Shown: positions 381-52,276 of the stretch, in pieces
How the letters are laid out: each line of letters starts with the position of its first letter
Position numbering within the stretch: position 1 is the first letter of the stretch
Source of the DNA: a virus
Taxonomy: Duplodnaviria > Caudoviricetes
Reading direction: 5' to 3' (one strand)
DNA: 64,000 nt
Virus record (IMG/VR): IMGVR_UViG_3300037501_000111
Span: 276,342 to 340,341 of that record
Made by a program: the position numbers and the translations under genes
Notes under the pieces: generated by a model
What the model saw: the letters and a program-made list of their open reading frames with translations, nothing else
What the model was told of the DNA's origin: nothing
Databases searched by the model: none

Positions 381-392
381 TCCCATTCACGG
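381..392 (+). promoter_or_regulatory. Dispersed 13-bp motif copy 1 (TCCCATTCACGG)
   Basis: 20 nt after the RadC stop; followed by a GC hairpin at 413-441. Confidence 0.75.
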
Positions 393-495
393 CACATCGC
401 AAACGAAGCTCGGCCCGCTCCCGTCGTCAGATGGGGCGGGCTTGAGGCATTGAAAGAAAGGGAGCTGTTGCTCCCCATAACACAGGAGCAAAACA

Positions 496-672
496 ATGGA
501 AAACGTCAAGATGTTGGTCAACGGAACGAAGCTCACCATCGAGGTTGATCTCGCCCATCGTGGTGCGAAGTCTTCCACGGGCAAGACGATTCGAGTGGCG
601 AGCACGGAGGGCAACGTGGAGTGTCCCGAGCACCCGGCCATCAAGGTCGGTCTGAATGTGTTTACGAAGTAA
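496..672 (+). CDS. Small conserved hypothetical protein (MENVKMLVNGTKLTIEVDL...SSTGKTIRVASTEGN)
   Basis: Read manually (below ORF-track cutoff); AGGAG RBS at ~484; GC3-rich codons. Confidence 0.8.
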   Translation: MENVKMLVNGTKLTIEVDLAHRGAKSSTGKTIRVASTEGNVECPEHPAIKVGLNVFTK

Positions 673-748
673 TTCGTAGAACACGCTATCAAGGTTAGTG
701 GCCCCGTAACCTTGATAACAGATGATATATAGTTTCTTAGGAGACTAT

Positions 749-1085
749 ATGTCAGAGGATTCAAACCGGGGCCAAAAGTTAGAAGCCCATAGAAAAGCAG
801 CTAGAGAATGGGCAAAGCGAGACTACGAGAAAAACAGGAGATGCTAGAGTTGTCATGCGAAAGAAATGGCGACATGAGCACCCTGAATATGTCTTGCTAA
901 GAAACGCCAAGAGGCGTGCAAAAGAAAAAGGGTTAGAGTTTACCCTAACGGCAGAAGATATCCACATACCTGAAGTTTGTCCTTTACTCGGCATTTTTAT
1001 TCACCGTAATCTGAATGGCGATAAAGCAACGCCTAACAGTCCGACGTTGGATAGGATTGATTCAAGTAAAGGTTATACGAAGGAT
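749..1085 (+). pseudogene. Degenerate HNH-like homing endonuclease remnant
   Basis: AKRRAKEKGLEFTLT..CPLLG..SPTLDRIDSSKGYTKD; A-run frameshift near 833; truncated before the terminal Asn motif and run in frame into the gene starting at 1098. Confidence 0.7.
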
Positions 1086-1097
1086 GGAGAGAGAACG

Positions 1098-1358
1098 ATG
1101 ATCGCAATGCAGTCCGGTATGAAAGGTACGCTGACCGTCCAAGGAATCCCTTGGATGTACCTCAGCTACAACTCCAAGGTGGGCTTTGGTTTTGGCCGAC
1201 ATGCCATCATCTTTGACCTTCTGGCCAATTGCTACGTCATCAAAGAAAACGGAGAGACCGTTTTCGGATCAGGTTCCGTCTCAGAATGTTTGGAGCAAGC
1301 GGCTCCGATCGTCTGGGACTACTACGCCAACCAATTCACACCGTCCTGGGAAAAATGA
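1098..1358 (+). CDS. Hypothetical protein
   Basis: GGAGAG RBS then ATG at 1098; the ORF track fuses it to the HNH remnant. Confidence 0.65.
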   Translation: MIAMQSGMKGTLTVQGIPWMYLSYNSKVGFGFGRHAIIFDLLANCYVIKENGETVFGSGSVSECLEQAAPIVWDYYANQFTPSWEK

Positions 1359-1699
1359 AACAGAACATGATTTGCTACAACTGCAATATTGTGCTTGGTG
1401 AATGCAATGTTCGTTCCGAGAACTACACACGAGTTGGACTCCAAGTGGAGCGTTTCATTCGTGAGTATTCTCAATGCGAGATTCGCAGCGGCCAGAATGG
1501 TGGCCTCTTCAAGCGCTCGGCTGCGGGCGAAACGGAGACTCCCGAGGAAAAGAAAAAGCGGGAGTACAACGAGAACCCAAAGAACTTCGAGGCTATCAGG
1601 CCAGTATACTGTGAAGCCTGTGGGTGCACGTACAAGAATGGATGTAGCACACACCCATCCAATGTACAGATTCCACTGGTGAAACCGGCCAAGAAGTAA
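1355..1699 (+). CDS. Cys-rich hypothetical protein (CYNC...CEACGC)
   Basis: ATGA overlap with the upstream stop; paired CxxC motifs. Confidence 0.65.
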   Translation: MKQNMICYNCNIVLGECNVRSENYTRVGLQVERFIREYSQCEIRSGQNGGLFKRSAAGETETPEEKKKREYNENPKNFEAIRPVYCEACGCTYKNGCSTHPSNVQIPLVKPAKK

Positions 1700-1712
1700 C
1701 GAACGAACGGCG

Positions 1713-1725
1713 CTCCCATTCACGG
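1713..1725 (+). promoter_or_regulatory. Dispersed motif copy 2 (CTCCCATTCACGG)
   Basis: Exact copy 13 nt after the stop at 1699, upstream of gene 1789. Confidence 0.8.
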
Positions 1726-1788
1726 GGCGGCGGTGACGAAAACCGGGCAATCGCCCCAACAAGAAACAAAGCAACAGGAGAATCGAAC

Positions 1789-2235
1789 ATGGCATGGGAC
1801 AAGACGCCCGCTCAAAAGGATGCGGTCAAGGCGTTTCTGGTGACGGTGGATGGCAAGGTGGACCTGGAGGCCAGCGTGGAGAAGTACCGCGCGGTGTGTC
1901 GCCAGTATCTCGCCGGGCAGACGGCAGAGCAGGATCTGATCGCTCTCTGCATGGCGGAGCTGTTCGACCAGGCTCGTGGTGGCACCCGCAACATCGACTA
2001 CATCAAGAGCCAGACGGTTCAGCTCATGGCCAAGCGCCACCCGGAGCTGGCTGATCCGACTCTCTTCGCCATGCTGAGCGGTCGAGTGGAGGACTACCTC
2101 CACGCCAACTGCGACCAGCCGGCGGTGGCGGCCAAGGGCAACAAGCCTGCTCGTGAGGCCATCACGGGTCGGACGTACGCCAAGAAGATGGGCCAGGGCG
2201 GTGGCTTCTATCGGAAGTCCGACTACAAGGGCTGA
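1789..2235 (+). CDS. Paralog family A protein (putative winged-helix DNA-binding)
   Basis: Shares DGxVD..S, FAxLSxR..Y and GxGGG motifs with 10218 and 37672; AGGAG RBS; GC3-rich. Confidence 0.75.
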   Translation: MAWDKTPAQKDAVKAFLVTVDGKVDLEASVEKYRAVCRQYLAGQTAEQDLIALCMAELFDQARGGTRNIDYIKSQTVQLMAKRHPELADPTLFAMLSGRVEDYLHANCDQPAVAAKGNKPAREAITGRTYAKKMGQGGGFYRKSDYKG

Positions 2236-2521
2236 GGATAAGTGACCCCAAGGTGGAGCTGATCCACTTTCTCAAGAAATGGCTCCATCACAAGGCAGCC
2301 GATATTCTGCCAGCCCATCGATGATCTGGTGGAACGCCTGAAGGCTTGCTGGACTCGTCAGTGGTGTAAGGAAAACACGCCCAAGCATTGAGGCGTGGAA
2401 CGGAATCGGGTTTGGTGTAAGAGGCTGGCCAGTTGACAACGGATCAACGCAGCTAATCCCAAGTCAAAAACACCCTTTGTTTCCTGATTGGAATAGCGCC
2501 ACTCTCCCTGACAAAGACAGA

Positions 2522-2630
2522 GGAACGGTTAGCCAAATGGTCATGGTGAGTACGTTCGGGAGCATCTAGTGGAACTGACCAACCACTAAGACTATGGGTT
2601 CGACTCCCATTCACGGACAAGCGTTCGTGA
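2522..2630 (+). ncRNA. Degenerate tRNA-like element containing motif copy 3 (2604-2616)
   Basis: D-arm-like TAGCCAAATGGT and canonical T-arm ATGGG-TTCGACT-CCCAT; no clean acceptor or anticodon stem. Confidence 0.45.
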
Positions 2631-2670
2631 TGCTAGATGAGAGTGACGCTATTCTGCTCAGGAGATAGTC

Positions 2671-3030
2671 ATGTGCCCGCACAACACTGACAGCCATATC
2701 GAGTTATCCAAACTTCCCGCCCTCATCAAAGAGAAGGGATGGTCATGCTCAGAGATTCGTGGTTACTACGCCCACACTGAGCCTGGATGTTGGTTGCAGG
2801 GAGATTCTGGTTACGAGCGTAACGGTACTGCATTCCAAGTCATCGCACGAGAAGATGACTTGAAAGTCAGAGTTGGATGGCCAGGACAATTTACCACCAC
2901 CTATACTTGCTTCTCTGCAATGCAGGTGATGTGGTGGTTGGAGAGGATTCTGGCTTGTCGCACCTACAATGGTGAGCAGCGTAATGAATGCAAGCGCTGT
3001 GACCAAGAACCAGCTAATCAAGTGAGCTGA
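2671..3030 (+). CDS. Hypothetical protein
   Basis: GGAG RBS; co-oriented ORF. Confidence 0.6.
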   Translation: MCPHNTDSHIELSKLPALIKEKGWSCSEIRGYYAHTEPGCWLQGDSGYERNGTAFQVIAREDDLKVRVGWPGQFTTTYTCFSAMQVMWWLERILACRTYNGEQRNECKRCDQEPANQVS

Positions 3031-3031
3031 G

Positions 3032-3283
3032 ATGAAAGAGCTATCTTCTATATTCTTTCTTTTAGTTGGGTGTTCAGCTAGCTCTGAGCCAATCGTTCAC
3101 GATGGTCAGGATAGTGGATGTGATGATGCTTTCACAATGGAGGATGCTGAAACGTCCTCTTCTCGCGCGAACGAGTCAACTACCTCAGATGCATCATCAG
3201 GTGGTGGCAACAACACCAACCCTCCAACTCAAGGTTGTTGCAAGTGGTACAACAAAACTTGCGTACAACCATGTGTTAGATAA
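3032..3283 (+). CDS. Putative lipoprotein
   Basis: N-terminal MKELSSIFFLLVGC resembles a lipobox. Confidence 0.5.
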   Translation: MKELSSIFFLLVGCSASSEPIVHDGQDSGCDDAFTMEDAETSSSRANESTTSDASSGGGNNTNPPTQGCCKWYNKTCVQPCVR

Positions 3284-3433
3284 AGCACAACTGGTGGACC
3301 AGATCACTGGGGAGAACATGTGTTGTGCAGTGGAACAATGGGCTACCAGAGAGTCTGGCCTGATGAAGTTCCACATAAAGACAAGTTGACTCTTGCAGTG
3401 GTTACAAGACGCATTACAGAAGTAAAGGCCGTC

Positions 3434-3697
3434 ATGAAGGAATCGTTTTACTTGGCTCTCGGTCTTTGGCTGCTGGTAGTTGGTTGCCTGAAACCACTTC
3501 CTTCTGAGACCACTCCAGTAATGATAGTTGAGATCAAACCTCTTCCTCCAACTAAGGTCTATGGTGAGATTGTTTCAGTAGAGATAATCGAATCGCCTAT
3601 CAAGACCTGGCTATCTAAAGAAGAGATAGAAGAGAAACGCCTTCAACAAAAAAATCCTTGTGCGAAAGGCGACCCACTCTGCGATGTCATTCCCTAA
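3434..3697 (+). CDS. Putative lipoprotein
   Basis: MKESFYLALGLWLLVVGC signal/lipobox-like start. Confidence 0.5.
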   Translation: MKESFYLALGLWLLVVGCLKPLPSETTPVMIVEIKPLPPTKVYGEIVSVEIIESPIKTWLSKEEIEEKRLQQKNPCAKGDPLCDVIP

Positions 3698-3827
3698 CCT
3701 CACACACGTAGCCATCAGACAGGGTGGAGTTGTATAATCCTTACCTTCTCCTAATAGACACCTCACTGGTACGAACACAACGGAGATATTTGCTCCTATT
3801 GTGAGGAACACAATTACCAGTGAGGGG

Positions 3828-3840
3828 CTCCCATTCACCG
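3828..3840 (+). promoter_or_regulatory. Dispersed motif copy 4 (CTCCCATTCACCG)
   Basis: 20 nt upstream of ATG 3861. Confidence 0.8.
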
Positions 3841-3860
3841 CACGAACGAGGAACGAAACC

Positions 3861-4253
3861 ATGAGTGATATCATCGAATTGACGTACAAGAATGATGAGG
3901 CTGAGGAAATTACCCTGAAGGTTCCGTCCAAGATGGAAGTCTGCTATGACTGTGAAGGTCATGGCACGGTTCTCAACGAATCGATGCGGTATCATGCTTA
4001 TACCTCGGAAGACGAGGAGATGCATGATCCGGAATTCCTTGAGGAATACTTCAAGCGGGGCGGAATCTATGATGTCCAGTGTCCGACTTGCAAGGGCAAG
4101 AATGTCCTTGCGGTTCCTGACGAAGAGGCCATCAACAAGAACGAAGCACTCAAGGCCGAATACGAGAAGTACACGGAGTGGAAGGAAGATTCGGACCGTG
4201 CTGATGCAGAGTATGAGGCTCTGTGTCGGATGGAACGGATGATGGGCTGCTAA
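3861..4253 (+). CDS. Phage protein with DnaJ-type CxxCxGxG zinc motifs
   Basis: CYDCEGHG and CPTCKGK; GAGGA RBS. Confidence 0.7.
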   Translation: MSDIIELTYKNDEAEEITLKVPSKMEVCYDCEGHGTVLNESMRYHAYTSEDEEMHDPEFLEEYFKRGGIYDVQCPTCKGKNVLAVPDEEAINKNEALKAEYEKYTEWKEDSDRADAEYEALCRMERMMGC

Positions 4254-4544
4254 ATGGACATCCATGAGCTGTCGCTAACGATGGGTCGTCCCGTGGCGGT
4301 AATGGGTTTGGATGGCGACAACGATAAGCACATTATGGTTGTTGTTTGTTTGAATCCGCCCGAAGCCTACGTCAACAAAGACAACAAGCATATTGGTCAC
4401 ATCATCGCAGCCAAAGTAGTCCCGGTCAAGGATGCTGCAATCCTTTCGGAACGAGAACATACGGCAGTTATCAGGGCACACTTTGCCTTGAAGGTTGCTT
4501 TAGAGGGCGCATATGCTGTACCACCTCCTGATCAATACTGCTAA
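4254..4544 (+). CDS. Hypothetical protein
   Basis: Abuts the upstream stop. Confidence 0.55.
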   Translation: MDIHELSLTMGRPVAVMGLDGDNDKHIMVVVCLNPPEAYVNKDNKHIGHIIAAKVVPVKDAAILSEREHTAVIRAHFALKVALEGAYAVPPPDQYC

Positions 4545-4800
4545 TCTCATCTACCTCGCATCCTATACTGCCAAAGACATCAAGTTTTTGCGATGGTTGA
4601 CGATTGCTGGCATCATCCTTCTGATTCCCTACTACCTGTATACTATGGTCTTTAGGAAGCAACCGCCTCCAAAGAGTCACATACAGATGGTATCTTTTGG
4701 CAAGATCCATCTGGTCATCTAGTCCATATTTCTGGATGGTACAACCGAGTCCAAATCAGCAATCGCTATGACACTCTCTGGTCTTACGCTCAAAATTGAG

Positions 4801-4941
4801 ATGTCCAAGAAGAAGAAGAAGAAACACGAGCCGCCTAAAAAGCATCGTAAGTACATTCTCATTGAGGGGTATGTACTCAATGAAAAAACTGGTGAGTTGG
4901 AACCATACTATAAAAAAGTATATCCTAAACACAAGGTATAG
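4801..4941 (+). CDS. Small basic protein (MSKKKKKKHEPP...)
   Basis: Read manually; 46 aa; stop lies 3 nt before motif copy 5. Confidence 0.55.
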   Translation: MSKKKKKKHEPPKKHRKYILIEGYVLNEKTGELEPYYKKVYPKHKV

Positions 4942-4944
4942 CGG

Positions 4945-4957
4945 CTCCCATTCACCG
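4945..4957 (+). promoter_or_regulatory. Dispersed motif copy 5 (CTCCCATTCACCG)
   Basis: Between the stop at 4941 and ATG 4977. Confidence 0.8.
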
Positions 4958-4976
4958 CACGTCGGGAGCAACCGTC

Positions 4977-5258: not shown

Positions 5259-5842
5259 ATCATTGGTTTATCAGCGATACCCACTTTGGGCATGCGAACA
5301 TCATCAAATATTCCAATCGTCCTTTCAAGGATGTGGATGAGATGAATGAGTTGATGATCCAAGAGTGGAACAAGTTGGTCAAGCCAAATGATGCGGTCTA
5401 CCATAACGGTGACTTTGCATTCATGACTTTCGACAAGTTTCGCCTGATGCATCGGCGCCTCAATGGAGATATCTATCTCCAGCTTGGTAATCATGACAAG
5501 ATGATTATCCAGCATAAGACGGATCTTCTCAAGCAAGGGAAGATTGTCAGCATCGAAAACTACCGCGAGTTGAAGATAGGTGGTCACATGATCGTCCTCT
5601 TTCACTACGGTCAAAGAGTGTGGAACAAGTCGCATCACGGAAGTATCCATCTCTATGGACATTCCCACGGTTCATTGCCACCATTTGGCAAGTCAGTAGA
5701 TGCCGGTGTAGACTGCAAAGAGATCACTCACGAGTATCGGCCGATTCACTTGGACGAAGTACTCAAGTACATGTCTAAGCGAGAACAATCAGTAGTCGAT
5801 CATCACGGTACTCGTGACGAAATGGGCAGCAAGGAAGACTGA
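5255..5842 (+). CDS. Calcineurin-like metallophosphoesterase
   Basis: SDTH, GD, GNHD, FHY and GHSHG motifs. Confidence 0.92.
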   Translation: MNHWFISDTHFGHANIIKYSNRPFKDVDEMNELMIQEWNKLVKPNDAVYHNGDFAFMTFDKFRLMHRRLNGDIYLQLGNHDKMIIQHKTDLLKQGKIVSIENYRELKIGGHMIVLFHYGQRVWNKSHHGSIHLYGHSHGSLPPFGKSVDAGVDCKEITHEYRPIHLDEVLKYMSKREQSVVDHHGTRDEMGSKED

Positions 5843-5843
5843 G

Positions 5844-6050
5844 ATGACTCATTCCGACTTCAAGATTGGCGAAACATTCTTCACATCCAATGGATGGCAA
5901 TGGTTGTGTACCGACAAGGGAACACGAGTGATTGTTGCCGTCCATATAGAAGAAGGACGTGACCCATCTTGGTTGAGCGGGCCTCCTTACGCAGTAGCTG
6001 AGGTGGTATTCGATGAGCACGACTTCTCTTCCTGCACCCAAACGCCATAA
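5844..6050 (+). CDS. Hypothetical protein
   Basis: FKIGETF..WLCTDKGTRVIVA; co-oriented. Confidence 0.6.
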   Translation: MTHSDFKIGETFFTSNGWQWLCTDKGTRVIVAVHIEEGRDPSWLSGPPYAVAEVVFDEHDFSSCTQTP

Positions 6051-6333: not shown

Positions 6334-6334
6334 G

Positions 6335-6347
6335 CTCCCATTCACGG
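6335..6347 (+). promoter_or_regulatory. Dispersed motif copy 6 (CTCCCATTCACGG)
   Basis: 1 nt after TAG 6333; 19 nt before ATG 6367. Confidence 0.8.
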
Positions 6348-6366: not shown

Positions 6367-7194
6367 ATGAGCAAGTTTCTTCTGACTGACTGGGAAATCA
6401 ATGGGTACGATGACTCTGACTTCATGGCATCGTACTATGATGATAAGACCAATACCATCGGATTCACCTGCTACGGCAGTACCCGATATCCATCTGCTAC
6501 TGTTATCGGTCATAACACCGATGGTTCTACTTCGGTAGTGGTGGATGGTGAGAATCTTCTCATGCCCAACTCTGATACGGTTGAGAAGGCTCGTTTGGTT
6601 CTGGAAGAAAACATCTTTCAACGTCTCACTAAGACTGACAAGCGCTTGGTGGATGAACCTGATGTGGAGGATCTCTCTAAGGGCCTTCGTGTTCGGCTGA
6701 CTGCCAATGCTCGTATGCAGGTTCGCGCTCTGGAGCCTTGCAATAAGTGCAATGGTTCTGGTAAATGGGTCAATCCTCGACGAGAGACTGACATTCGTGA
6801 CTGTTTCTCTTGTGGTGGTTCTGGTCAGCACAAGGGCGCCAAGGTCAAAGGCGAGGATGGTAAGCAGGCTTACGAGACTCTGCCTGCCGGACTTACAGGT
6901 ACCGTGGTGGATTGGAACAGCTTCGGCCAGTTCTACGCTTCGGGCTATAACAAGCCCAATCGACACAACACTACAGTTCAGTTCCGTACAGACCATGGCA
7001 AGGTAGTCCGGGCTAGTCTGTCCAAGTTGCGGCTGGATCGCGACTATCAACCTGCTGAGTCCCTTCGTGAGAGAGCTAAGAAGCTCTCTTTCGATTATCA
7101 GTTCAGCGCTCTGTATCCTCGTTTTGCGTGGGATACTCGGAACTATGCGATGCAGGTAGCAAAAAAACATGAGAACCAGATTCATTCTGCCTAA
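6367..7194 (+). CDS. Phage protein with DnaJ-type Zn finger
   Basis: CNKCNGSG and CFSCGGSG; GGAGG RBS. Confidence 0.75.
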   Translation: MSKFLLTDWEINGYDDSDFMASYYDDKTNTIGFTCYGSTRYPSATVIGHNTDGSTSVVVDGENLLMPNSDTVEKARLVLEENIFQRLTKTDKRLVDEPDVEDLSKGLRVRLTANARMQVRALEPCNKCNGSGKWVNPRRETDIRDCFSCGGSGQHKGAKVKGEDGKQAYETLPAGLTGTVVDWNSFGQFYASGYNKPNRHNTTVQFRTDHGKVVRASLSKLRLDRDYQPAESLRERAKKLSFDYQFSALYPRFAWDTRNYAMQVAKKHENQIHSA

Positions 7195-8964: not shown

Positions 8965-9273
8965 ATGCGATTCACAACGATCAGCGGTTCGATTTACGAG
9001 GTGGATCGAAAGAACAAGAAGATTCGACGCCTCAATGGCAATGCCGATCCTACCCCTCGTCAGGGCAAAGATGGTGAGTGGCGTGGTTATCTCAACGAGC
9101 TTCACATTGAAGTTGGTCAGCCTGTCGTTATTGCATGGGCCGATGCTCATCAACTAACAGAGGAAACCATGTCTCTTCTTGGAATCTCCGAGAAGGAAGC
9201 ACCTCCTCCTATGCCTGGTAGAACTACTTTCACTTCCCGAGTGGTAGAGATCGACGACAAAGTTTACCACTAA
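8965..9273 (+). CDS. Hypothetical protein
   Basis: AAGGA RBS; MRFTTISGSIYEVD. Confidence 0.65.
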   Translation: MRFTTISGSIYEVDRKNKKIRRLNGNADPTPRQGKDGEWRGYLNELHIEVGQPVVIAWADAHQLTEETMSLLGISEKEAPPPMPGRTTFTSRVVEIDDKVYH

Positions 9274-9494: not shown

Positions 9495-9692
9495 GCGGGT
9501 ATTCGAAAATTCCGCTGACACTGTAACGGCTCCCATTCACGGCAACCGCTAGCCGATTGCCGTGAATCGCTTACGAAAACGGGGCACACGAGCCCCATTG
9601 AATGACGGAGCTAAATCTCCTCAGAGAGATGACGTAACGGCAGACGATGCCGGCTCCTAACTACCTCGTCTCATGACGAGGCAATCTTTTCT
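9495..9692 (+). ncRNA. Candidate structured RNA containing motif copy 7 (9530-9542)
   Basis: Non-coding; stems ATTCACGGCAA/TTGCCGTGAAT, GGGGC/GCCCC, GGAG/CTCC and CCTCGTC/GACGAGG. Confidence 0.5.
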
Positions 9693-9728
9693 TACAATGC
9701 GACGAGTAACGTAGATGTGATGAAATCC

Positions 9729-10109
9729 TTACCAATAATGGAGATCGTCTTCATACTCTAATACATCATTATATCTTTGTCCTTTGGGTTGGTTCACAAC
9801 CCTTAGTTCAAGATTGATAAGTCTGTTATCAGACTTATCACCATTGATATGATGTATGTTTTCGGAGGGTAGAAGTTTTCTCCCTAAATGTTGCTCCATT
9901 ACATAACGGTGTTCATAATACTGTTGTCCGTTTACATAAATACGTCTATATCCACTAGACATTTTGTAGCCGGATCCTTTGGGGCCAATAGTTTTGGTTT
10001 CAATATTTATGACAGTTGTACCATCATCTAGCATTCTGTCATAATGTGATTGGCAATAACCTTTAGCGTGGTGAGGTCTTTCACAATTTTCTACTTTACA
10101 AAGGCGCAT
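9729..10109 (-). CDS. HNH homing endonuclease
   Basis: YEHRYVME..IHHINGDKSDNRLINLEL; N-terminal CKVENC..GYCQSHY. Confidence 0.92.
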   Translation of the reverse strand: MRLCKVENCERPHHAKGYCQSHYDRMLDDGTTVINIETKTIGPKGSGYKMSSGYRRIYVNGQQYYEHRYVMEQHLGRKLLPSENIHHINGDKSDNRLINLELRVVNQPKGQRYNDVLEYEDDLHYW

Positions 10110-10217
10110 TATCTTCTCCTGTTAGTAATATAACAGGGCCAATCGTTAGCTAGCGGGCAGAAGTTTCTTCTTCCGGGATAGTGTACGATATGTCTCGTCA
10201 AAAAAGGAATACACAAC

Positions 10218-10637
10218 ATGAGCACTTCTCTCGATATCACGGTCACGCTCGTCCAGACGGACGGCCGAATCGACCTTGACCAGTCCACGGCGGCCTTCCG
10301 TTCGGCGGCTCTCAAGCGCCAGGCGGAGCTGGAGACCGAGAAGACCGAGATCGCTGCGGCGGTTTCGGCCATCTTCGACCAGCACTACGGCAAGTCCATC
10401 CCGATGCCGACCCTCGGCTCGATGGTGGCGCAGGCCCTCAACGCTCAGCCGGAGAACTTCGCTGTTCTCAGCGAGCGTGCCCTCAACTACGTTCGTGAGA
10501 ACAGCCAGGGCGAGGTTAAGGATGGTGTCGAGGAGCGTCCCAATTCGCTCTTCGTCATCAGCAAGGGTAAGGGCGGCGGCTGCGGTCGTCGTGCGGACCT
10601 TCCGGTCAAGCCGGCCAAGGGCAGCAAGACGGTCTGA
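10218..10637 (+). CDS. Paralog family A protein (putative winged-helix DNA-binding)
   Basis: DGRIDLDQS..IPMP..FAVLSERALNY..KGKGGG. Confidence 0.8.
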   Translation: MSTSLDITVTLVQTDGRIDLDQSTAAFRSAALKRQAELETEKTEIAAAVSAIFDQHYGKSIPMPTLGSMVAQALNAQPENFAVLSERALNYVRENSQGEVKDGVEERPNSLFVISKGKGGGCGRRADLPVKPAKGSKTV

Positions 10638-11390: not shown

Positions 11391-11403
11391 CTTTCATTCA
11401 CGG
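11391..11403 (+). promoter_or_regulatory. Dispersed motif copy 8, variant (CTTTCATTCACGG)
   Basis: 4 nt after the stop at 11386; 11/13 match. Confidence 0.65.
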
Positions 11404-11739: not shown

Positions 11740-12255
11740 ATGATCATCTACGGATTCTGGTTCTACGAAGAGTTGGCCGAAAAGGTTGGTGTGGGGCCGG
11801 GTAAGCATCGTGGTGATAAGGTTGATTCCTATATCGAACTTCAAGATGTTCGCGGTAATATCTTTGATGTCAAGGTATCGAGCCTACGCTTGGAGTTGTT
11901 CCGACAGAATCCAAAGTGTGTCAGTTGTCATCGTATCGGACATCTTTGGATTCTGGAAGCCCATCATCGAAAAGAGCCTCCCCACTTGAATCTTTACTAC
12001 TCTGGTGAGGACGAGTGCGGGGATTGGAAGAATCTGTGCAAAGATGGTTTGGTCCTAATGACTAAGGACCATATTATTCCTCGCTCCAAGGGAGGCCCCA
12101 CTAACTTGGAAAATCTTCAAACTATGTGCTCCATCTGTAATGGAATGAAGGGAGATAAGCTTCATCATCAGATGGTCAAACATAAGAAAACATCAGACCC
12201 ACTTATTGGGACTGGCTTGATGCAAAATCTTCAAGGGAAGATTCAATTCCTGTAA
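11740..12255 (+). CDS. HNH endonuclease
   Basis: CVSC...TKDHIIPRSKGG..NLQTMCSICN. Confidence 0.9.
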   Translation: MIIYGFWFYEELAEKVGVGPGKHRGDKVDSYIELQDVRGNIFDVKVSSLRLELFRQNPKCVSCHRIGHLWILEAHHRKEPPHLNLYYSGEDECGDWKNLCKDGLVLMTKDHIIPRSKGGPTNLENLQTMCSICNGMKGDKLHHQMVKHKKTSDPLIGTGLMQNLQGKIQFL

Positions 12256-13520: not shown

Positions 13521-13533
13521 CTCCCATTCACGG
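13521..13533 (+). promoter_or_regulatory. Dispersed motif copy 9
   Basis: Exact copy between the stop at 13500 and ATG 13552. Confidence 0.8.
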
Positions 13534-15490: not shown

Positions 15491-15823
15491 ATGAGGTACA
15501 CCATCGAACAAATCATGGACTTCGTACTCAAAGGTGCTGAGACTTCTCGTGAGGATGCTAGCTATGGTGAACGCTGGGATGATGGTGGGGCTTCTCGCTT
15601 GGAGGATCAGGTTAGATTCTATAAGATGGGTATGAAGAACGAAATTCCTAAGGATTGGGAAAAGTTCATACCCGCTCCAACTCCAGAACAGGTTCGTAGT
15701 GAAAATCACCCATTGCAATTTGAATATTGTGAATGTGGTTGTCATTGCCATTCTGGCATCTCTAAAGGGATTGAATATTCCATCTACGACGATTTGAAAT
15801 CGAAGCTCCCATTCACGGTTTGA
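15491..15823 (+). CDS. Hypothetical protein
   Basis: Its 3' end overlaps motif copy 10. Confidence 0.6.
   Translation: MRYTIEQIMDFVLKGAETSREDASYGERWDDGGASRLEDQVRFYKMGMKNEIPKDWEKFIPAPTPEQVRSENHPLQFEYCECGCHCHSGISKGIEYSIYDDLKSKLPFTV
15806..15818 (+). promoter_or_regulatory. Dispersed motif copy 10
   Basis: Exact copy at the gene end, upstream of gene 15950. Confidence 0.75.
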
Positions 15824-17857: not shown

Positions 17858-17870
17858 CTCCCATTCACGG
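17858..17870 (+). promoter_or_regulatory. Dispersed motif copy 11
   Basis: Exact copy; its 3' end opens a 72-nt stem structure. Confidence 0.75.
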
Positions 17871-22507: not shown

Positions 22508-22520
22508 CTCCCATTCACGA
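22508..22520 (+). promoter_or_regulatory. Dispersed motif copy 12 (CTCCCATTCACGA)
   Basis: 5 nt after the stop at 22502; a second partial copy GGCTCCCATG overlaps ATG 22546. Confidence 0.75.
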
Positions 22521-24081: not shown

Positions 24082-24890
24082 ATGATTCTTGGTGAATACA
24101 GTGATCACGCCCAAGTAAGTTCCATTCGATACGAGCAGCCTGAATTGTCTGCTGATGATCCGATTTAGTTTTATCCCAAGGGACTATGGACTCCGATTAT
24201 CGACCCTGATAACATTGCTTATCACTCGATGTTCAAGCCATTCAATCTCAATCAATATCTGTATCCAAGGCCACCGATTGACATGGGGCTCGTGCCTCCC
24301 ATTCATGGCGCCCCGCCCAACGTGCTTAGGATGCCGCTCAAGTTTTCCAATACTTCCTATGTGATTCCACGTCAACTAGAAGCGCTAGAGCCTGTGATTC
24401 GTCGAGTGGCCGAGTATGAGAAATATCTGTGCTCGGATAATAGCATCGATCATGATGATACTTTCTGTCATATCACCTATGATTCATCAACAGTAAATGC
24501 TGGAGAGTATCATCGTTTCCCTGGTTTCCATGGTGATGGTATTCAAGGGACGAAACTAACACCCAAGGTATTCGTAGAGCATTCATACATTCTTACGAGT
24601 GCGCCTCTTACTGAGTTTTGTTTGCAGCCCTTCTTCCTGAAACACTTGGATGAAGCCAAGCACAACTATTTCTTGGAGTTTGATAGGCAAGCTAAGGAAA
24701 CTAATGTTTACGGTTCGCTTCCAAACCATCTATACCTAATTGATCCGTACATCGTACCCCTAAGATCAAACAGGCTACAAACCGCGTGTTCTTGCGTATC
24801 GCATATGCATTTACAGAACTTCAGCATCCCAAGAACACAATCAATCCACTCTTCTTTGGTCAACAGTATGATAATTCGCAAGAAGGTTAA
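24082..24890 (+). pseudogene. Putative 2OG-Fe(II) oxygenase-like gene (lesions: TAG 24166; 7-nt repeat collapse ~24750)
   Basis: FPGFHGDG (HxD); restoring one TACATCG unit gives PYIVHRTP..RVFLRI (distal His and Arg); contains motif variant CTCCCATTCATGG at 24296-24308. Confidence 0.5.
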
Positions 24891-25847: not shown

Positions 25848-26651
25848 ATGAGACGAAAAGACTCTAGCAAAAAAAATACAAGCAAATCGCTGCTTCGCTA
25901 TCCAGGTGGTAAAACCAGAGCTATCAGTACTATCACCCACTATTTTCCAAAAGATATTACAGAGTTGTGCTCTCCATTTTTTGGAGGAGGATCAATAGAA
26001 TTATGGTTAGCTGCTAAAGGTGTTAAAGTATATGCTTATGATATTTTTCGGCCATTAGTTGATTTTTGGCAGACAGTAATTCTTCATCCAGAAGAGCTAT
26101 CAAAAGAAGTACAGAAATACTATCCACTTGCCAAGGAAGCATTTTATAAACTTCAAGAAGAACAAAATAAATTCTCTACTAAATTAGAAAGGGCTGCGGC
26201 GTTCTATGTTCTAAATAGAAGCTCTTTTTCAGGATCAACCTTATCTGGTGGTATGTCCCCCAATCATCCTCGTTTCAATCAGACGTCTATTGATCGTGTT
26301 AGAGATTTTCATAATCCTAACTTTAGTGTAAATCGGTTGGATTTTAATGAATCCATTGTAAAACATGATAAGGTTTTCAAATATCTTGATCCTCCTTACA
26401 TAATTGAGGGGGCACTTTATGGTAAAGATGGAAGCACCCATAAAGATTTTGACCATCAAGGACTATTTAATCTGTTAAACAAAACAGACAATTGGATCAT
26501 GTCTTATAATAATTGTGAAGAGATTAGATCTCTTTATAAAGATTATCAAATGATTGAGCCTGTTTGGGCGTATGGTATGTCTAAAAATAAAAGATCTAAT
26601 GAACTATTAATCTTCAGTAAAGATATCAAATCTAAACAAAATGGGATCTAA
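25848..26651 (+). CDS. Dam-like (D12 class) N6-adenine DNA methyltransferase
   Basis: LRYPGGK, SPFFGGGS, YAYD and YLDPPY motifs. Confidence 0.92.
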   Translation: MRRKDSSKKNTSKSLLRYPGGKTRAISTITHYFPKDITELCSPFFGGGSIELWLAAKGVKVYAYDIFRPLVDFWQTVILHPEELSKEVQKYYPLAKEAFYKLQEEQNKFSTKLERAAAFYVLNRSSFSGSTLSGGMSPNHPRFNQTSIDRVRDFHNPNFSVNRLDFNESIVKHDKVFKYLDPPYIIEGALYGKDGSTHKDFDHQGLFNLLNKTDNWIMSYNNCEEIRSLYKDYQMIEPVWAYGMSKNKRSNELLIFSKDIKSKQNGI

Positions 26652-27561
26652 TAAGCAAACAAAAAATGGTAAAGCTTTTGAGTTTGCATTTGCTAATTCT
26701 CTTTACAATAATTGTTCTGAATTTTCAGAAACTGATTTAGTGTCAGATTATACATATAATGTGGCACTAAATCATTACAATTCTACAGATATTGATGAAC
26801 AGAAAAAGTTTAATGAAGCCGCTGACATTGCAGTAGAACATATTATTTCACTTGAGCCTCAATTAATTACTCCGAAGTCAAATTTAGATCTATTGAAAAT
26901 AGAACTACTATCAGATACAGCAGGCAAATTAGGAGACGTTAGGGACGTAAAAGCATTTAGAAAAATGCAAGCATTTGAAATTGGGTTTTCTAATAAAAAT
27001 AATCACAAAGCGCTCAAAAGTAATAGAATTTCTGATGTTAGTGATTTTGGGAAAGAATGGGTAAATATATCTTGTTCTTCTCAATTTATATCAGATATAA
27101 AACCTATTTTTTCCCGTCTAAGATCTCTTCATCAAACTCATAGTAAATGGTCATCTCTTACCGACAAAGAAACTGGTATTTATAAACCAATTTTAGATGC
27201 TCTTAAGAAAGAGATTGAATCTCTCAACCAATCGCAAAATATAGCTGTTCCACTTTTCAAATACTTTTTGGGAAGAAAAGACTTTTACAAAGTTATTAAA
27301 CAAGATAAATCATCTGAAGTCGAGATTGAGGGGTTTAATGTGAATGGTAATTTATCAATTACTAAATTAGCTTTACCCTCTAAAATTGAAAGGTTGCAAT
27401 TTAAAACAAACTCTAATAATAGGTTGCTTTTAATCTTTGACCAAGATTGGATTCTAGAATTTAGAATACACTCCGCATCTTCAATAGTTGAGCCCTCTCT
27501 TAAATTTGATGTCCAATTGATTGGTAATCCACCAATTTATAGAAAGGTTCTATCTATCTAA
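26641..27561 (+). CDS. HaeIII-family type II restriction endonuclease
   Basis: NGKAFE, DTAGKLGDVRDV, SNKNNHKALKSNRIS, YFLGRKDFYKVI, FRIHSASS, SLKFDVQL resemble the RE_HaeIII pattern; overlaps the MTase stop. Confidence 0.75.
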   Translation: MGSNKQTKNGKAFEFAFANSLYNNCSEFSETDLVSDYTYNVALNHYNSTDIDEQKKFNEAADIAVEHIISLEPQLITPKSNLDLLKIELLSDTAGKLGDVRDVKAFRKMQAFEIGFSNKNNHKALKSNRISDVSDFGKEWVNISCSSQFISDIKPIFSRLRSLHQTHSKWSSLTDKETGIYKPILDALKKEIESLNQSQNIAVPLFKYFLGRKDFYKVIKQDKSSEVEIEGFNVNGNLSITKLALPSKIERLQFKTNSNNRLLLIFDQDWILEFRIHSASSIVEPSLKFDVQLIGNPPIYRKVLSI

Positions 27562-32640: not shown

Positions 32641-32653
32641 CTCCCATTCACGG
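32641..32653 (+). promoter_or_regulatory. Dispersed motif copy 14
   Basis: Exact copy 8 nt after the stop at 32632; 14 nt before ATG 32668. Confidence 0.8.
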
Positions 32654-37159: not shown

Positions 37160-37172
37160 CTCCCATTCACAG
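37160..37172 (+). promoter_or_regulatory. Dispersed motif copy 15 (CTCCCATTCACAG)
   Basis: 2 nt after the stop at 37157. Confidence 0.75.
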
Positions 37173-48099: not shown

Positions 48100-48576
48100 A
48101 TGAAAAAGAAAACAAAGAAAAAGAAAACAAAGAAAAAGATAATTCGGCACGAAATTCAGACTGAGTATCTGGGTAGCGTGTATGGTAAGGAGTTTCTAAA
48201 GCTGGTCCCCAAAGCAGTTAAGAAGCTCCGTTCTATTAAAAGAAAATATCCCTTTGATGCTATTGCATTTACAGGGTCTAGTGGTGCGGCATTAGCTTAT
48301 CCACTTTCTTATCTACTAAAGATGCCACTTATTCATGTCCGTAAAGGTAATTCTCATTATGGTATGGGCAAAATAGAAGGAACTATTTCTTCTAAGCATT
48401 ACATTATTGTTGATGATTTTATAGAAACAGGTTCTACTATTAAACGAATCATCAAAAATATCAGCGCAGAGACTAATGCTAAACCAATTGGTATCCTGTT
48501 ATACAGCTCTGGAATGAATAACGATTTCGTTTATCAGACGCAAGAATTGCCCGTATTCACCCTTCCAAGGAGATAA
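48100..48576 (+). CDS. Phosphoribosyltransferase-fold protein
   Basis: GSSGAALAYPLS; IIVDDFIETGST PRPP-binding loop. Confidence 0.85.
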   Translation: MKKKTKKKKTKKKIIRHEIQTEYLGSVYGKEFLKLVPKAVKKLRSIKRKYPFDAIAFTGSSGAALAYPLSYLLKMPLIHVRKGNSHYGMGKIEGTISSKHYIIVDDFIETGSTIKRIIKNISAETNAKPIGILLYSSGMNNDFVYQTQELPVFTLPRR

Positions 48577-48578
48577 TA

Positions 48579-48938
48579 ATGAAGCCATATATGCATGCCA
48601 AAAAAAATAGTGCAAAGAAGCACGGCGGCAAACCAGAAGACTATCAAAAGATTCATAACTTTATAGATTCTAGTAAAGCTAGCATGCCTGATATGCGTCA
48701 TAGAAGTTGTTTGCATAATTCTTTTGGTATCTTTATGGTAGAGCAGGTATTTGGAACTACTATTACAAATTCAGAAGGTAAGAAGGTTTGTACCCGCGAT
48801 CTTGCCGAGGACCATGTAATTGAAGACCTTGGTTTCATTCCAACAATGGAACACTGGTTGAATAACATGACCATGCAAGACTGGATGTTCGGTGGTCGAC
48901 GTAAAGAAGCCAAAGATAGAATCATCAAGATCGACTAA
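48579..48938 (+). CDS. DUF6915-like phage protein
   Basis: HGG..EDYQKIHNFIDSSK..DMRHR..LHNSFGI (family recalled). Confidence 0.75.
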   Translation: MKPYMHAKKNSAKKHGGKPEDYQKIHNFIDSSKASMPDMRHRSCLHNSFGIFMVEQVFGTTITNSEGKKVCTRDLAEDHVIEDLGFIPTMEHWLNNMTMQDWMFGGRRKEAKDRIIKID

Positions 48939-48949
48939 AGGAAAGTATT

Positions 48950-49318
48950 ATGTCTAAAGGTATGTGGGAAATTCTAGTTCCGACCGAACGCCGGTCGGCC
49001 CCTGGAAAATTTTACACTACCAGGTTTCATCGTGTTTGGGATGGAAAAGTTAGAGAAATTACCGGAGGTTTAACGGTAATGGTACCTGCACGTGGACAAT
49101 GGGTTAATCCTGTAACTGGACAATTATTTCAAGAGAGAATGATTCCAGTTAGGATTATAGCAACTCGTGAAGAGATTGAACAAATGATTCCAGTTAGGAT
49201 TATAGCAACTCGTGAAGAGATTGAACAAGTTGTTGACCTGACACTCAAATATTATGACCAAATTGCTGTTCTTTGTTACAAGATTAGTGATGAAGTTATT
49301 TTGAAATATAAGGATTGA
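48950..49318 (+). CDS. Conserved phage protein carrying a 15-aa tandem duplication
   Basis: MIPVRIIATREEIEQ twice. Confidence 0.75.
   Translation: MSKGMWEILVPTERRSAPGKFYTTRFHRVWDGKVREITGGLTVMVPARGQWVNPVTGQLFQERMIPVRIIATREEIEQMIPVRIIATREEIEQVVDLTLKYYDQIAVLCYKISDEVILKYKD
49139..49228 (+). repeat. Exact 45-bp tandem duplication
   Basis: atgattccagttaggattatagcaactcgtgaagagattgaacaa x2. Confidence 0.95.
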
Positions 49319-49809
49319 TTATGAGCTTAATTCCTATTGGAGCTATTTTATATATGAGAGAGGTTATTCGTACCCTCTTTCTTGTCAAGGAGATTATCTC
49401 CAAAGATGGTTTGGTACACTTTAGGCGCTGGCGCATTCTAGCCACACCTTGGTTTAATATCTACATTCATAACATTCTAAGGTCTGATGAGGAAGCTCAT
49501 CCCCATGATCATCCGTGGAATTTTCTTTCCTTTATTTTGAAGGGCGGGTATACAGAAGCATGGTTACCCTTTTATGAAGATGTAGCATATAGGAACGGTG
49601 TCCCTCTTCTCAATTCTACTAGGAAACCTGGTACCGTAGTGTATCATGATGCAAAAGATTTCCATAAACTTACGCTCCTGAAAGATAGCGCTTGGACCCT
49701 GGTGTTTACCTTTGGTAAGCGCCGTCCCACATGGGGATATCAAACCGAACAAGGATGGTTTGAGCAAAAGGCATATCGAGAATTAAAACATGAAGGTAAA
49801 TTACGATGA
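49315..49809 (+). CDS. Cupin-like protein
   Basis: HPHDHPWNFLSFILKGGYTE..FHKL..WTLVF. Confidence 0.75.
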   Translation: MIMSLIPIGAILYMREVIRTLFLVKEIISKDGLVHFRRWRILATPWFNIYIHNILRSDEEAHPHDHPWNFLSFILKGGYTEAWLPFYEDVAYRNGVPLLNSTRKPGTVVYHDAKDFHKLTLLKDSAWTLVFTFGKRRPTWGYQTEQGWFEQKAYRELKHEGKLR

Positions 49810-50243
49810 AAAAGAGTGATGCAAAACCTGGAACCAGAGTTCTAGCCTCTACTAACTATGATGAGTGGGGAGATGGAGAACATTTGGGGCCATATAAGTA
49901 TGATGAATATGGCGACACTGATCTAATTGGAGTCATCCGTAGCAAAGAAGCTTCACCCGGTCATGTCTGGGTTAAGTGGATTGAAGGAGACTTATCTGGA
50001 GACGAGGAAGAAGTCGAACTCAAACTTCTAATTTTAGAATCTGAACGCTCCCAAATCGAAGAAGATTTCAAGAAAGTTTCTAAAGAAGTTAAAGAGAAGA
50101 TGAAAGAAGCAGCAAAACTTGTTAACGAGGCTGGTAAGATGGCACGCTCCGTTCATACCGAATTGGCTTATATGGAAGCTGCTTATGAACTTGTAAACGC
50201 AATGGACAAGAATGGTTGGCGTAGTTCTTCATGGGGATGCTAA
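49806..50243 (+). CDS. Paralog family B protein
   Basis: VKW..EAAKLVNEAG..GWRSSSWGC. Confidence 0.75.
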   Translation: MKKSDAKPGTRVLASTNYDEWGDGEHLGPYKYDEYGDTDLIGVIRSKEASPGHVWVKWIEGDLSGDEEEVELKLLILESERSQIEEDFKKVSKEVKEKMKEAAKLVNEAGKMARSVHTELAYMEAAYELVNAMDKNGWRSSSWGC

Positions 50244-50667
50244 TGAAAAAGAAGTTTGAAATGGGCTCTCGTGTAGTGTGGGTAGAACGTAGTAATCTTG
50301 ATACTCATAATGAGTATGAAGATGATGATACCATCAGAGGAATTATAAAGTCAGTCAATGATGATGGCAGTTTTACTGTGCAATGGGACAATAGTTGGGT
50401 GAATCCAAACATCAGCAATCACAAAAAAAAGATGAACTAATTACAGAGGTTGAGGCTGATAAGATTCTTTCCAAATTGGAAAGAGAATATGAAGTTTGGG
50501 CTGGTCCTATCAGGAAAAAAGATGGAAAGGCCGCTAAACTTCTACAAGAGGTTGGTGAATTAGCGGATGAGCAGAATAGAGAATTGATTGAAATGCATGA
50601 TGTAGTTGGTCCCCTCATCCACGCCATGGATGAATTGGGCTGGCGTACTAGCTCTCTATCTTGTTAA
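50243..50667 (+). pseudogene. Paralog family B gene with A-run frameshift (~50425)
   Basis: VQWD..LEREY..AAKLLQEVG..GWRTSSLSC. Confidence 0.65.
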
Positions 50668-51662
50668 ATATGAAATTATGAATACCGTTTACGTTTTAAT
50701 GGAAGAAGGATGGGAATATAATGATGAGATTTATTTCCAACCAGAAGGTGGCGGGGCTCACCTCATTCATTCTTTACTGATAAGGAAAAGGCCCAAGCAG
50801 AATGCGATAAACGAAACTTAATTTCGTTTAAAAAGCTGTGGGAGTCAGGAGAGATTCGAGAGTATTGTTATGGATTTGACGAACTCATTCCATACAATCA
50901 TCGTAAAAATAAAGAAAAGCGCAAAGCGCTGGACGCAATTTGTGAAAAGATTTTCGGAAAAGATTTCGAAGAAATTTCCGAAGATTTCTACAACGATAAA
51001 AATGTGAAAATTGAATCTCAATCTGATAAAGATTGGAAAGAACTTATGTCACATTTGAAACTTAATTTTTGGGAAGTTGTCCAGGTAGAAAAGGGATGAT
51101 ACATGTTACAGTTGCAGATTGCAGATCCAAACGTTAGCTCTGGCAGCATCGGAGTTTCATAGTGTTTAGATCATGAGGTTCTTAAAGAGTTTGCCGCCAA
51201 AGGTCTCCTTGATCCTCAAGTTGTGATTGTGGTGGCACCGACTAAGAATTACCATATCAAAAAGGAATCGCGTAAAGTGGTTCCTCTCAAAGACCTTATG
51301 ACCTACATTGAATGTCGAGCGGCTGGTCCAAGTAAAGTATATGGACTCATTACATTCCGTGAACCAAAAGAAGCAAGGGAGCATTATCTTTCCAAAGAGG
51401 ATAGAGCTTACCAGAATAATGTTTTAGATTACGACGGTGAATCCTATAGCTCTCGCCTCATCGGTCAAGAAAGCCGAGATGCGATTGAGTCTGGAAATTA
51501 TAAATATCTTTCTGAGCCCCTTACAATTAGTGTGCCAAAAGGAGTCTTCGCAAAAGATCCGCCCAAATGGGAAAAGGCTTGGGTTAATCTTTTTTCCGTT
51601 CAAAGGTAATTGACCAGTGCGATTATCGTAGACGCCGCCTGTTTGCTTATTCAGTTCAGCTT

Positions 51663-52256
51663 TTGATTGTTGGATTCAATCTATTCCTTCGATCATTAAT
51701 TTTGCTTCTTGGACTGCTAACTGGAGCAAGGTCTTGGTCCCTCAAGTTTCTTAATCCTATTACATATAAGTTAAGGGAGACTTGGGAAATCTGGGAAGGC
51801 GGGAGTATTTTCATTCGTCATCAACCTGAAGATGACAATCCTAATGAGGAATTAATATATCTGCCTTCCAGTTATCTTTTACGTAGTTTTTGGTTGACAC
51901 CATTTATGCCACTTATTTTAATTCCGGTGGGATTATTATATTGGTTTCATCGTCCATATCTTGCTACCTCTATTTTATTGTTGATATTTTTAGTGGTCCC
52001 AGCTTTATTGGTAGTAGTCTCCTATTTAGCAACGAACGGTAATGGTGGAAGATTGGTCAAGAAGGCGTGGAAAGGTATTACTAATATGTTTACTAGCGAC
52101 AAACTCTGGTATCTACAACAGGAAGATATACAATTCATTACCTGCAATACAAATAAGTCGCCTTTGACATACAAGAGTTTTCCGGCTCGCCGCAAAACCA
52201 TTGGTCTCAGGTTTCAAAACCTCAAAACCAAAGTGTGTAAACCATTTTCAGTTTAA
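51663..52256 (+). CDS. Membrane protein
   Basis: Two to three hydrophobic segments. Confidence 0.6.
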   Translation: MIVGFNLFLRSLILLLGLLTGARSWSLKFLNPITYKLRETWEIWEGGSIFIRHQPEDDNPNEELIYLPSSYLLRSFWLTPFMPLILIPVGLLYWFHRPYLATSILLLIFLVVPALLVVVSYLATNGNGGRLVKKAWKGITNMFTSDKLWYLQQEDIQFITCNTNKSPLTYKSFPARRKTIGLRFQNLKTKVCKPFSV

Positions 52257-52263
52257 GTTGAGG

Positions 52264-52276
52264 CTCCCATTCATGG
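52264..52276 (+). promoter_or_regulatory. Dispersed motif copy 16 (CTCCCATTCATGG)
   Basis: 7 nt after the stop at 52256. Confidence 0.7.

Follow-up and report, generated by a model that had tools for sequence, protein, structure and literature searches.

The closest described analogue of the element reported here appears to be the start-associated sequences (SAS) and extended start-associated sequences (ESAS) of Cluster K mycobacteriophages. SAS are asymmetric 13-bp repeats, present in 11-19 copies and of unknown function, which lie 3-7 bp from the start codon and include an AGGAG ribosome site (Pope et al. 2011, PMC3203893). In T4-type phages, promoter early stem-loops (PeSLs) combine sigma70-type early promoters with stem-loops, as described in two reports (Arbiol et al. 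2010, PMC2839356; Comeau et al. 2014, PMC4122927). The element in question is a 13-bp motif, CTCCCATTCACGG, that recurs in one orientation at gene junctions of a 64,000-nt stretch of the genome of a virus of the Caudoviricetes (IMG/VR record IMGVR_UViG_3300037501_000111, positions 276,342 to 340,341); we refer to this whole stretch as the window. We conclude that the motif is a real, strongly selected and undescribed cis-signal, best filed with the class-specific expression signals of phages. From its sequence properties, we tentatively propose that it is a compact, class-specific phage promoter acting on DNA, a reading to which we give a little less than an even chance of being correct.

Like SAS, the motif is 13 bp long, asymmetric and nearly always in the same orientation. 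It occupies a non-structural part of the genome, here in 46-60 copies, stands at a tight distance upstream of the starts of unrelated genes, and also parallels SAS in the conservation seen across subclusters and in the inverted repeats that precede a subset of copies. However, the two sequences are unrelated, and the motif ends 19 nt upstream of the ATG with a Shine-Dalgarno sequence that is separate and variable, which places it outside the SAS definition. One copy here precedes a tRNA gene, and relatives use a very dense 6-mer. With PeSLs, as those reports present them, the motif has in common the arrangement of short conserved units flanking small novel open reading frames (ORFs) in hyperplastic regions with shuffled content, but no sigma70-like sequence accompanies it, stem-loops occur rarely and only a few homology breaks coincide exactly with the motif. 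The core sequence occurs in no paper of the searched literature, and the 11-mer string appeared only in unrelated eukaryotic or viral primer contexts. This is in keeping with an earlier examination of the window (hereafter the original prediction), which had not recognised the motif as a described element.

A strand-polar motif at a fixed distance from start codons

The motif is strand-polar, restricted to one block of genes and set at a fixed geometry to start codons. Allowing up to two mismatches, we found 16 matches to CTCCCATTCACGG in the window (7 exact, 8 with one mismatch and 1 with two), all on the + strand, as compared to a mean of 1.1 and a maximum of 5 in 100 dinucleotide-preserving shuffles. 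The original prediction had listed 16 copies on this strand, which were recovered at the same positions except that the first one starts at 380, not 381, and begins with T. It had also placed most copies 1-20 nt after a stop codon, which we confirmed against the upstream + strand ORFs, and 13 of the 16 in the first 25 kb, a GC-rich part of the window (45-52% GC versus about 39-42% beyond).

Two contigs carrying many copies came from a motif scan of IMG/VR: G001, whose 209,766 bp cover about half a genome, and G002, which is rated complete at 480,838 bp. Each shares synteny with the window and matches it locally at about 68-81% nucleotide identity; GenBank phages gave no nucleotide match to the window. 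Among sequencing runs, only two DNA runs, both from freshwater, contain the window and may be its source; no RNA run containing it was listed. G002 is a huge freshwater myovirus, the name huge myovirus being based on its DnaE-type polymerase, tail sheath, baseplate genes and 57 tRNAs. The DnaE-type DNA polymerase is about 30% identical to those of scattered GenBank phages. A scan of related phages for the orientation of the motif had been suggested earlier, and the bias seen in the window recurred: with at most one mismatch, the motif occurs 46 times forward and once in reverse in G001, and 46 times forward and never in reverse in G002. Moreover, CTCCCATTCA is by far the top 10-mer of the whole G002 genome, with 60 copies versus 0 reversed. 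The G002 copies begin at a sharp AT-to-GC switch beside a divergent intergenic region and then thin out along the block (26, 13, 6, 2, 1 and 2 copies per 10 kb), with GC falling from 57% to 48%. Outside the block, about six copies are scattered at 1-140 kb and none lies at 140-410 kb; the rest of the genome has a GC of about 42%.

The core of the motif is under purifying selection. In 35 orthologous motif-anchored pairs it was 98% identical, versus 32-45% for the flanks (ungapped comparison). The sole copy with two mismatches (CTTTCATTCACGG, 11391..11403, + strand) stands before a decayed gene, in which the ATG at +19 that is kept in both relatives has been lost, leaving the gene in the window without an ATG. 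This copy is followed by an HNH-endonuclease ORF (11740-12255), at a place where the relatives carry an intact motif-led gene.

A logo of 134 copies yielded the conserved unit g-G-CTCCCATTCAC-n-R-c, whose 11-nt core hardly varies (1.4-2.0 bits per position) and whose position 13 holds a purine in 129 copies (96%). Between -60 and -3 the logo is flat, and the 90 nt upstream of the copies show no enriched k-mer, in agreement with the earlier statement that they have no -35 element in common. In most gaps, the motif is the sole signal that is conserved. A CG 5-8 nt downstream, which had been described as nearly universal, amounts to a weak tendency (0.3-0.4 bit at +18/+19).

In the common layout, a stop codon is followed after 0-8 nt by the motif, then by a leader of exactly 19 nt containing the Shine-Dalgarno sequence, and then by the ATG. 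The claim that an ATG follows 14-25 nt downstream was correct for several copies in the window, and across three genomes the motif-to-ATG distance has a sharp mode at 19 nt (26-32 copies, versus 2 at 18 nt and 4 at 20 nt). The Shine-Dalgarno sequence, of the GGAG type, is separate from the motif and floats 6-9 nt before the ATG, and the leader downstream of the motif is T-poor and unstructured, with enriched words such as ACGAACG, CGAAAG and GAGCAA. The ORFs behind the copies are unrelated (114 ORFs in 74 families). Since there are almost no paralogues within a genome, the 19-nt spacing was reached repeatedly and not inherited, and we rejected an inheritance of the leader length via gene duplication for the same reason. 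Orthologues behind the copies may differ in spacing (19 versus 31, 34 or 22 nt).

Other explanations of the layout were also rejected. A leaderless mRNA starting at the A of the ATG is contradicted by the real Shine-Dalgarno sequences at variable positions between motif and ATG. Predicted RNA folds leave the motif, which lacks G, mostly unpaired, and pairing with the Shine-Dalgarno sequence was dismissed on the basis of a mean pairing probability of 0.16 in these folds. Finally, the copy at 2604 follows a T-arm-like sequence, yet no phage tRNA ends in the motif, which speaks against a mimic of tRNA 3' ends.

The individual copies, all on the + strand, vary around this layout. Those at 4945..4957 (..CACCG; 3 nt past a stop, with a GGGAG Shine-Dalgarno sequence) and 6335..6347 (exact; 1 nt past a stop) lie exactly 19 nt from the ATG, and the copy at 3828..3840 (..CACCG; GAGGA Shine-Dalgarno sequence) lies 20 nt from it. 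The latter has orthologous copies in both relatives, as have those at 13521..13533 (exact; 20 nt past a stop) and 22508..22520 (..CACGA; 5 nt past a stop and 25 nt from an ATG). Longer distances are found for the exact copies at 1713..1725 (13 nt past a stop and 63 nt from the ATG of a 148-aa ORF), the orthologous site of which is conserved in both relatives, at 2604..2616 (54 nt from the ATG of a 119-aa ORF) and at 15806..15818, which overlaps the last codons of the upstream ORF and lies 29 nt from the ATG of a 189-aa ORF. The copy at 24296..24308 (..CATGG) lies inside an open frame, upstream of a DUF7227 protein, and is conserved in G002. As predicted, some copies lead into a hairpin instead of an ORF: TTCCCATTCACGG at 380..392, 19 nt past a stop, precedes a GC-rich hairpin, and the next ORF begins about 100 nt away; likewise, a hairpin comes after the exact copy at 17858..17870, with about 93 nt to the next ORF start; and the exact copy at 9530..9542 stands at the head of a conserved non-coding stretch. 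Isolated copies were found at 32641..32653 (exact and outside the GC-rich block; 8 nt past a stop and 14 nt from an ATG), 37160..37172 (..CACAG; 2 nt past a stop and 67 nt from an ATG) and 52264..52276 (..CATGG). The last one lies 125 nt upstream of a tRNA-Leu(CAA) gene (52402..52487, + strand), and the same order is repeated in G002 (motif at about 9038, tRNA at 9194).

The copies at 9530 and 13521 have a longer repeat in common (AATTCCGCTGA..CTGTAA..motif). Behind the former, the conserved non-coding segment (9543..9690, + strand) contains two conserved hairpins, ends at a terminator-like hairpin (9664-9681) and is up to 90-96% alike in G001 (translated comparison); it may represent a small RNA or a long leader. 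A hairpin formed between the motif and downstream sequence at 9530 was rejected because its pairing is not conserved in the relatives. In comparison to G001, the window has an insertion of about 0.5 kb at 9690-10200, with a minus-strand ORF (9729-10109), which splits the non-coding segment from the gene at 10218-10637.

The gene block is mosaic, with translocated cassettes and content shuffled between the relatives; some homology breaks fall at the motif and most do not. A role as cassette boundary, one of four roles that the original prediction had offered, agrees with the shuffling, but the position of most breaks away from the motif does not support it. The mosaicism likely follows from having short modules in common, as it does for PeSLs, rather than reflecting what the motif is primarily for.

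The CCCAT box in distant relatives

Judged by sequence, the 13-base motif is a local, lengthened form of a strand-polar CCCAT box that belongs to a family of 430-480-kb freshwater phages. CCCAT is the only core common to all versions across this family, which has the box as a 6-mer, as a two-part 15-mer and as an 11-13-mer, and reversed copies are avoided in the relatives with the hexamer form. One of these, G013 (451,956 bp), has a genome GC of about 32% and its own GC-rich block at 54-58% GC. Genome-wide, CCCATC occurs 360 times on the + strand and 7 times on the - strand, the latter as compared to about 75 reversed copies expected from a maximal-order Markov model. Up to 135 copies per 20 kb are found in the block, and zero on either strand across 160 kb of late genes. 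The genes of G013 are nearly all on the + strand, and the orientation of CCCATC stays the same over 290 kb, wherever in a gene it lies: many copies occur in the order stop, CCCATC, Shine-Dalgarno, ATG, and many others lie within ORFs, where they mostly read CCC-ATC. The polarity of the hexamer was also observed in G008 (4 forward and 352 reverse), G009 (246 and 4) and G014 (7 and 273), and is absent from the window clade.

The two-part version, T-CCCATC-N3-TAACGG-A, is present in 82 copies in G010, with the ATG most often 15 nt past the box. Its second part, T(A/C)ACGG, is common to G010 and the window clade, where it lies 4 nt nearer to CCCAT, and both clades keep 30 nt between the beginning of CCCAT and the ATG (G010, 6+3+6+15; window clade, 11+19). 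Additionally, the start codons behind the G010 box lie in a conserved context, (C/T)TAAT-ATG-A, with a weak or absent Shine-Dalgarno sequence, which suggests that the host of G010 relies little on Shine-Dalgarno pairing.

The putative early blocks (positions 1-25000 of the window, 420-480 kb in G002, 410-440 kb in G013, and the block of G010) exceed the remainder of their genomes by 13-25 GC points (57% versus 32% in G013). Possible reasons are that the blocks suit the tRNA pool of the host until the 41-57 phage tRNAs become available, or that they escape silencing of AT-rich DNA. The label 'provirus' that IMG/VR gives to these contigs may be an artefact of this GC shift.

In all clades, copy density drops monotonically from one block end. 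This would be consistent with a polar DNA signal that is read along the genome from its leading end and serves entry, protection of the first DNA, nicking or replication, the link to gene starts being a by-product of tight packing. The one-way course of the G013 hexamer over 290 kb regardless of genes, together with the avoidance of reversed copies, fits such a signal as well; and recombination at the motif, as a side effect or even as its main role, could have produced PeSL-like cassette boundaries in the mosaic block with its translocated cassettes and the homology breaks that do fall at the motif. We nevertheless regard this explanation as improbable. The exact ATG spacing in two clades points to gene expression, the motif decays along with its gene at 11391, and most homology boundaries lie elsewhere, while the near-total co-orientation of the genes makes polarity along the genome indistinguishable from polarity of transcription.

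The stoperators of L5 and further phages of Cluster A are spread over the whole genome of a temperate phage and are bound by its immunity repressor. A stoperator-like role had also been proposed for the motif, and with regard to anatomy the proposal holds: both are asymmetric, 13 bp long, placed in short intergenic gaps in dozens of copies, and in one orientation relative to transcription. In such a case, a DNA-binding protein would act at the motif as a polar roadblock that halts or modulates a polymerase coming from one side and thereby silences the early block later in infection. Neither the fixed 19-nt distance to the ATG, nor the terminal purine, nor the extreme density of the hexamer inside ORFs would be predicted by this, and the copies are restricted to one block of about 60 kb plus a few outliers, unlike the stoperators of L5. 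No repressor or integrase was seen, though no search aimed at either was made. We consider an operator of this kind to have only a small chance of being the answer, even though dyad elements stand beside some copies much as ESAS stand beside SAS (PMC3203893).

Candidate readers of the box

If the motif is a promoter, a predicted factor would direct RNA polymerase to CTCCCATTCAC. This would presumably be the host core enzyme, because no phage polymerase gene was detectable. Transcription would start at or just past the conserved purine at the 3' edge of the motif, and the transcript would open with a short leader of about 18-21 nt, poor in T and unstructured, that contains a Shine-Dalgarno sequence; the gene block is probably expressed early. 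A promoter would explain the restriction to one gene class, the lone compact box and the terminal purine, as well as the presence of copies ahead of a tRNA gene and of a non-coding segment. Most importantly, it accounts for the avoidance of reversed copies, and of copies in the late zone, in those relatives where the box is 6 nt long. Such avoidance fits a short, strong promoter and would not be caused by an element that acts in mRNA only.

The class-specific promoters of phages that bring a transcription apparatus of their own include the 17-23 bp promoters of T7, T3 and SP6, the early promoters of phiKZ or AR9, and the T4 late promoter, TATAAATA, which is read by gp55. The motif resembles them as a single compact block without a -35 element, in one orientation, before many genes of one temporal class and with a purine at its 3' edge (GG). 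The conserved block, which ends in C-G-G or a purine, is 11-13 bp long here and has 15-16 bp in G010, as compared to about 17-23 bp in T7-like promoters, and the G010 version (box, N3, TAAC, GG) is laid out like a promoter of the T7 type, or of single-subunit polymerases. We know of no promoter to which the sequence of the motif is related. It also differs from these systems in that no T7-like, multisubunit or two-barrel polymerase is detectable in the complete relative, and in that the sole sigma factor does not co-vary with the motif.

Promoters of the sigma32 type consist of a -35 element, CTTGAAA, and, 13-15 bp downstream, a -10 element, CCCCATnT. Here the CCCAT core is present and the -35 partner is not. 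That the motif acts as a sigma32-like, -10-only promoter was among the roles first proposed, and it is the best reading, strengthened by the family-wide conservation of CCCAT, although no phage polymerase was found and the sigma factor also occurs in relatives that lack the motif. Other promoter classes fit less: no -35 hexamer lies 16-18 bp upstream of a TATAAT-like -10 element, as in sigma70 promoters, and the motif itself has no GG-N10-GC, as in sigma54 promoters. The proposed role as a boxA antitermination signal was not upheld, with no sequence match to boxA/nut (GCTCTTTAACA-like), about 60 copies and no conserved hairpin after the motif; boxA sites come with a boxB hairpin and are few, in the leaders of operons.

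Searches with Pfam models for a T7-like polymerase (PF00940; this search had no positive control) found no match in G001 or G002, and models for the multisubunit beta and beta' (PF00562 and PF00623) found none in the complete relative G002. The T7 motifs A, B and C were absent from six-frame translations of G002, catalytic-motif patterns were negative, and comparison of 20 large ORFs, including large virion proteins, with PHROG, Pfam and PDB gave no polymerase match. In G013, a single short match of the motif-C type stood alone, without motifs A or B. A DIDGD match in a 1,199-aa protein of G013 was rejected, as it is not conserved in G002 and its ORF lies among baseplate and tail genes.

The sole sigma factor of the family (209 aa, sigma-70 family, regions 2 and 4) is encoded beside ribonucleotide reductase and is of a generic two-domain type, not RpoH-like in particular. 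Orthologues (62-100% identity) were found in at least 34 IMG/VR contigs, and a tblastn search of GenBank phages gave no match. Four complete or nearly complete (97-100%) genomes of 433-452 kb that have the orthologue contain the 11-mer at background counts only. Being equally present in relatives without the 11-mer, the sigma factor does not follow the distribution of the motif. The gene that opens the early block (124 aa; G002 L113:5022-5396) has orthologues in the blocks of G001, G013 and G010 and 27 metagenomic homologues. Its product was rejected as a candidate reader: the AlphaFold model is all-helical (pLDDT 85) and matches uncharacterised proteins only, with no match to sigma factors, helix-turn-helix proteins or Pfam. 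Pfam and PHROG scans of 10-20 early ORFs mostly returned no family.

The block also contains sigma54-like sites (TGGCAY-N5-TTGCW), which are far above chance, block-confined and conserved throughout the three clades. In G002, 6 lie in the block; the 9 strict forward sites of G013 are without exception inside it, and a looser pattern gave about 12 in G010, with one outside the block. They lie typically 46-71 nt before the box, just past intrinsic terminators, and at this distance upstream of about 10% of the motif copies in the relatives. Some of them are perfect dyads (TGGCAY-N5-TTGC-N5-GCAA-N5-RTGCCA); sigma54-like or dyad sites are located at L113:4800-4950, 5462-5480 and 6369-6400 in G002, at 412.7-445.4 kb in G013 and in the block of G010. 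Strong terminators are followed by such a site in 3 of 3 cases in G002, where the 15.5 kb of block scanned contained only these three, and in about 6 of 10 in G010, in which 3 further strong terminators are followed by box and gene with no other promoter-like site between. In the G002 block, sigma70-like matches were fewer than in shuffles (3 versus 7.4). The phage encodes neither sigma54 nor an enhancer-binding protein, and host sigma54 driving early phage genes would be unusual.

These results include several points that count against a promoter. Apart from the missing T7-like, beta or beta' polymerase and a sigma factor that also occurs in relatives without the 11-mer, the block holds host-type promoter candidates of its own in the sigma54-like sites, usually just past terminators, and the order of terminator, sigma54-like site and box suggests that the box alone may not restart transcription. 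Many G013 hexamers abut the Shine-Dalgarno sequence or lie inside ORFs; where they abut it, transcription from a classical -10 element would begin downstream of the ribosome site. Furthermore, the constant 30 nt between CCCAT and ATG, kept despite the 4-nt shift of the second box, fits a link to translation at least as well.

The main rival explanation is accordingly an RNA-level, start-associated element, with CCCAU about 30 nt before the AUG read in the mRNA, which we consider possible but rather unlikely. Host polymerase would make polycistronic RNAs from few sigma54-like (perhaps other) promoters, and the box would be either a site of processing, by which each cistron is freed, or a site where a phage or host factor docks to turn the translation of early messages on or off, in a logic comparable to T4 RegA/RegB or to the SAS of Cluster K mycobacteriophages. 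An element of this kind would agree with the ATG modes at 19 nt in the window clade and 15 nt in G010 at a constant distance from CCCAT, with a mostly unpaired motif that lacks G before a T-poor, unstructured leader, and with the recurrence in three clades of the order terminator, sigma54-like site, about 30 nt, box, 30 nt, ATG. The G013 hexamer is abundant in early messages and absent from late ones, and no polymerase or early sigma factor was found that would read a DNA signal. On the other hand, an element acting only in mRNA does not predict that the reversed word is avoided on the G013 sense strand. A tRNA gene and non-coding segments, too, have copies in front of them. Nor is a complementary RNA encoded, as judged by 0 reverse copies in G002 and no match to a tRNA 3' end, and the window itself has no sigma54-like site despite 13 motif copies in 25 kb.

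While we favour a promoter recognised by a phage factor on the host enzyme, the CCCAT box could also be the signal of an expression system that has no described counterpart, read by a phage factor or by a polymerase that is invisible to homology searches; we think this unlikely. In such a system, a polar box of 6-15 nt, set 30 nt before the starts, would run the whole early programme of phages of about 450 kb, which would also use host sigma54-type promoters.

Other contents of the window and implications

Besides the motif-led genes, the window encodes an RNA ligase, an AAA protein, four tRNAs and many small ORFs without a family; a search of Rfam found no family in the window apart from the tRNAs. 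Just past the early block, a D12-class adenine methylase lies beside a restriction endonuclease of the HaeIII family (25848-27561). In a translated comparison of the first 40 kb, the region at 25.6-27.8 kb showed no similarity to either close relative. At 53272-54873, a class II aminoacyl-tRNA synthetase (Asp/Asn/Lys type) is followed by an aminotransferase-like gene. G002 carries three suppressor-type tRNAs (anticodon TTA and twice CTA, at 50073-50149, 172924-172997 and 173183-173255), which hints at stop-codon reassignment or read-through late in infection.

Expression control in uncultivated huge phages is almost unknown, and the CCCAT box provides a testable handle on it, as early genes throughout a family of 430-480-kb phages without a recognisable RNA polymerase carry this tag. 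If it is a promoter, the box defines a new factor that retargets polymerase; if it is read in RNA, it represents a large regulon-wide signal for translation or processing in a phage. Either way, the box marks the early gene blocks, and with them the ORFan genes for host takeover, in metagenomic phage contigs.

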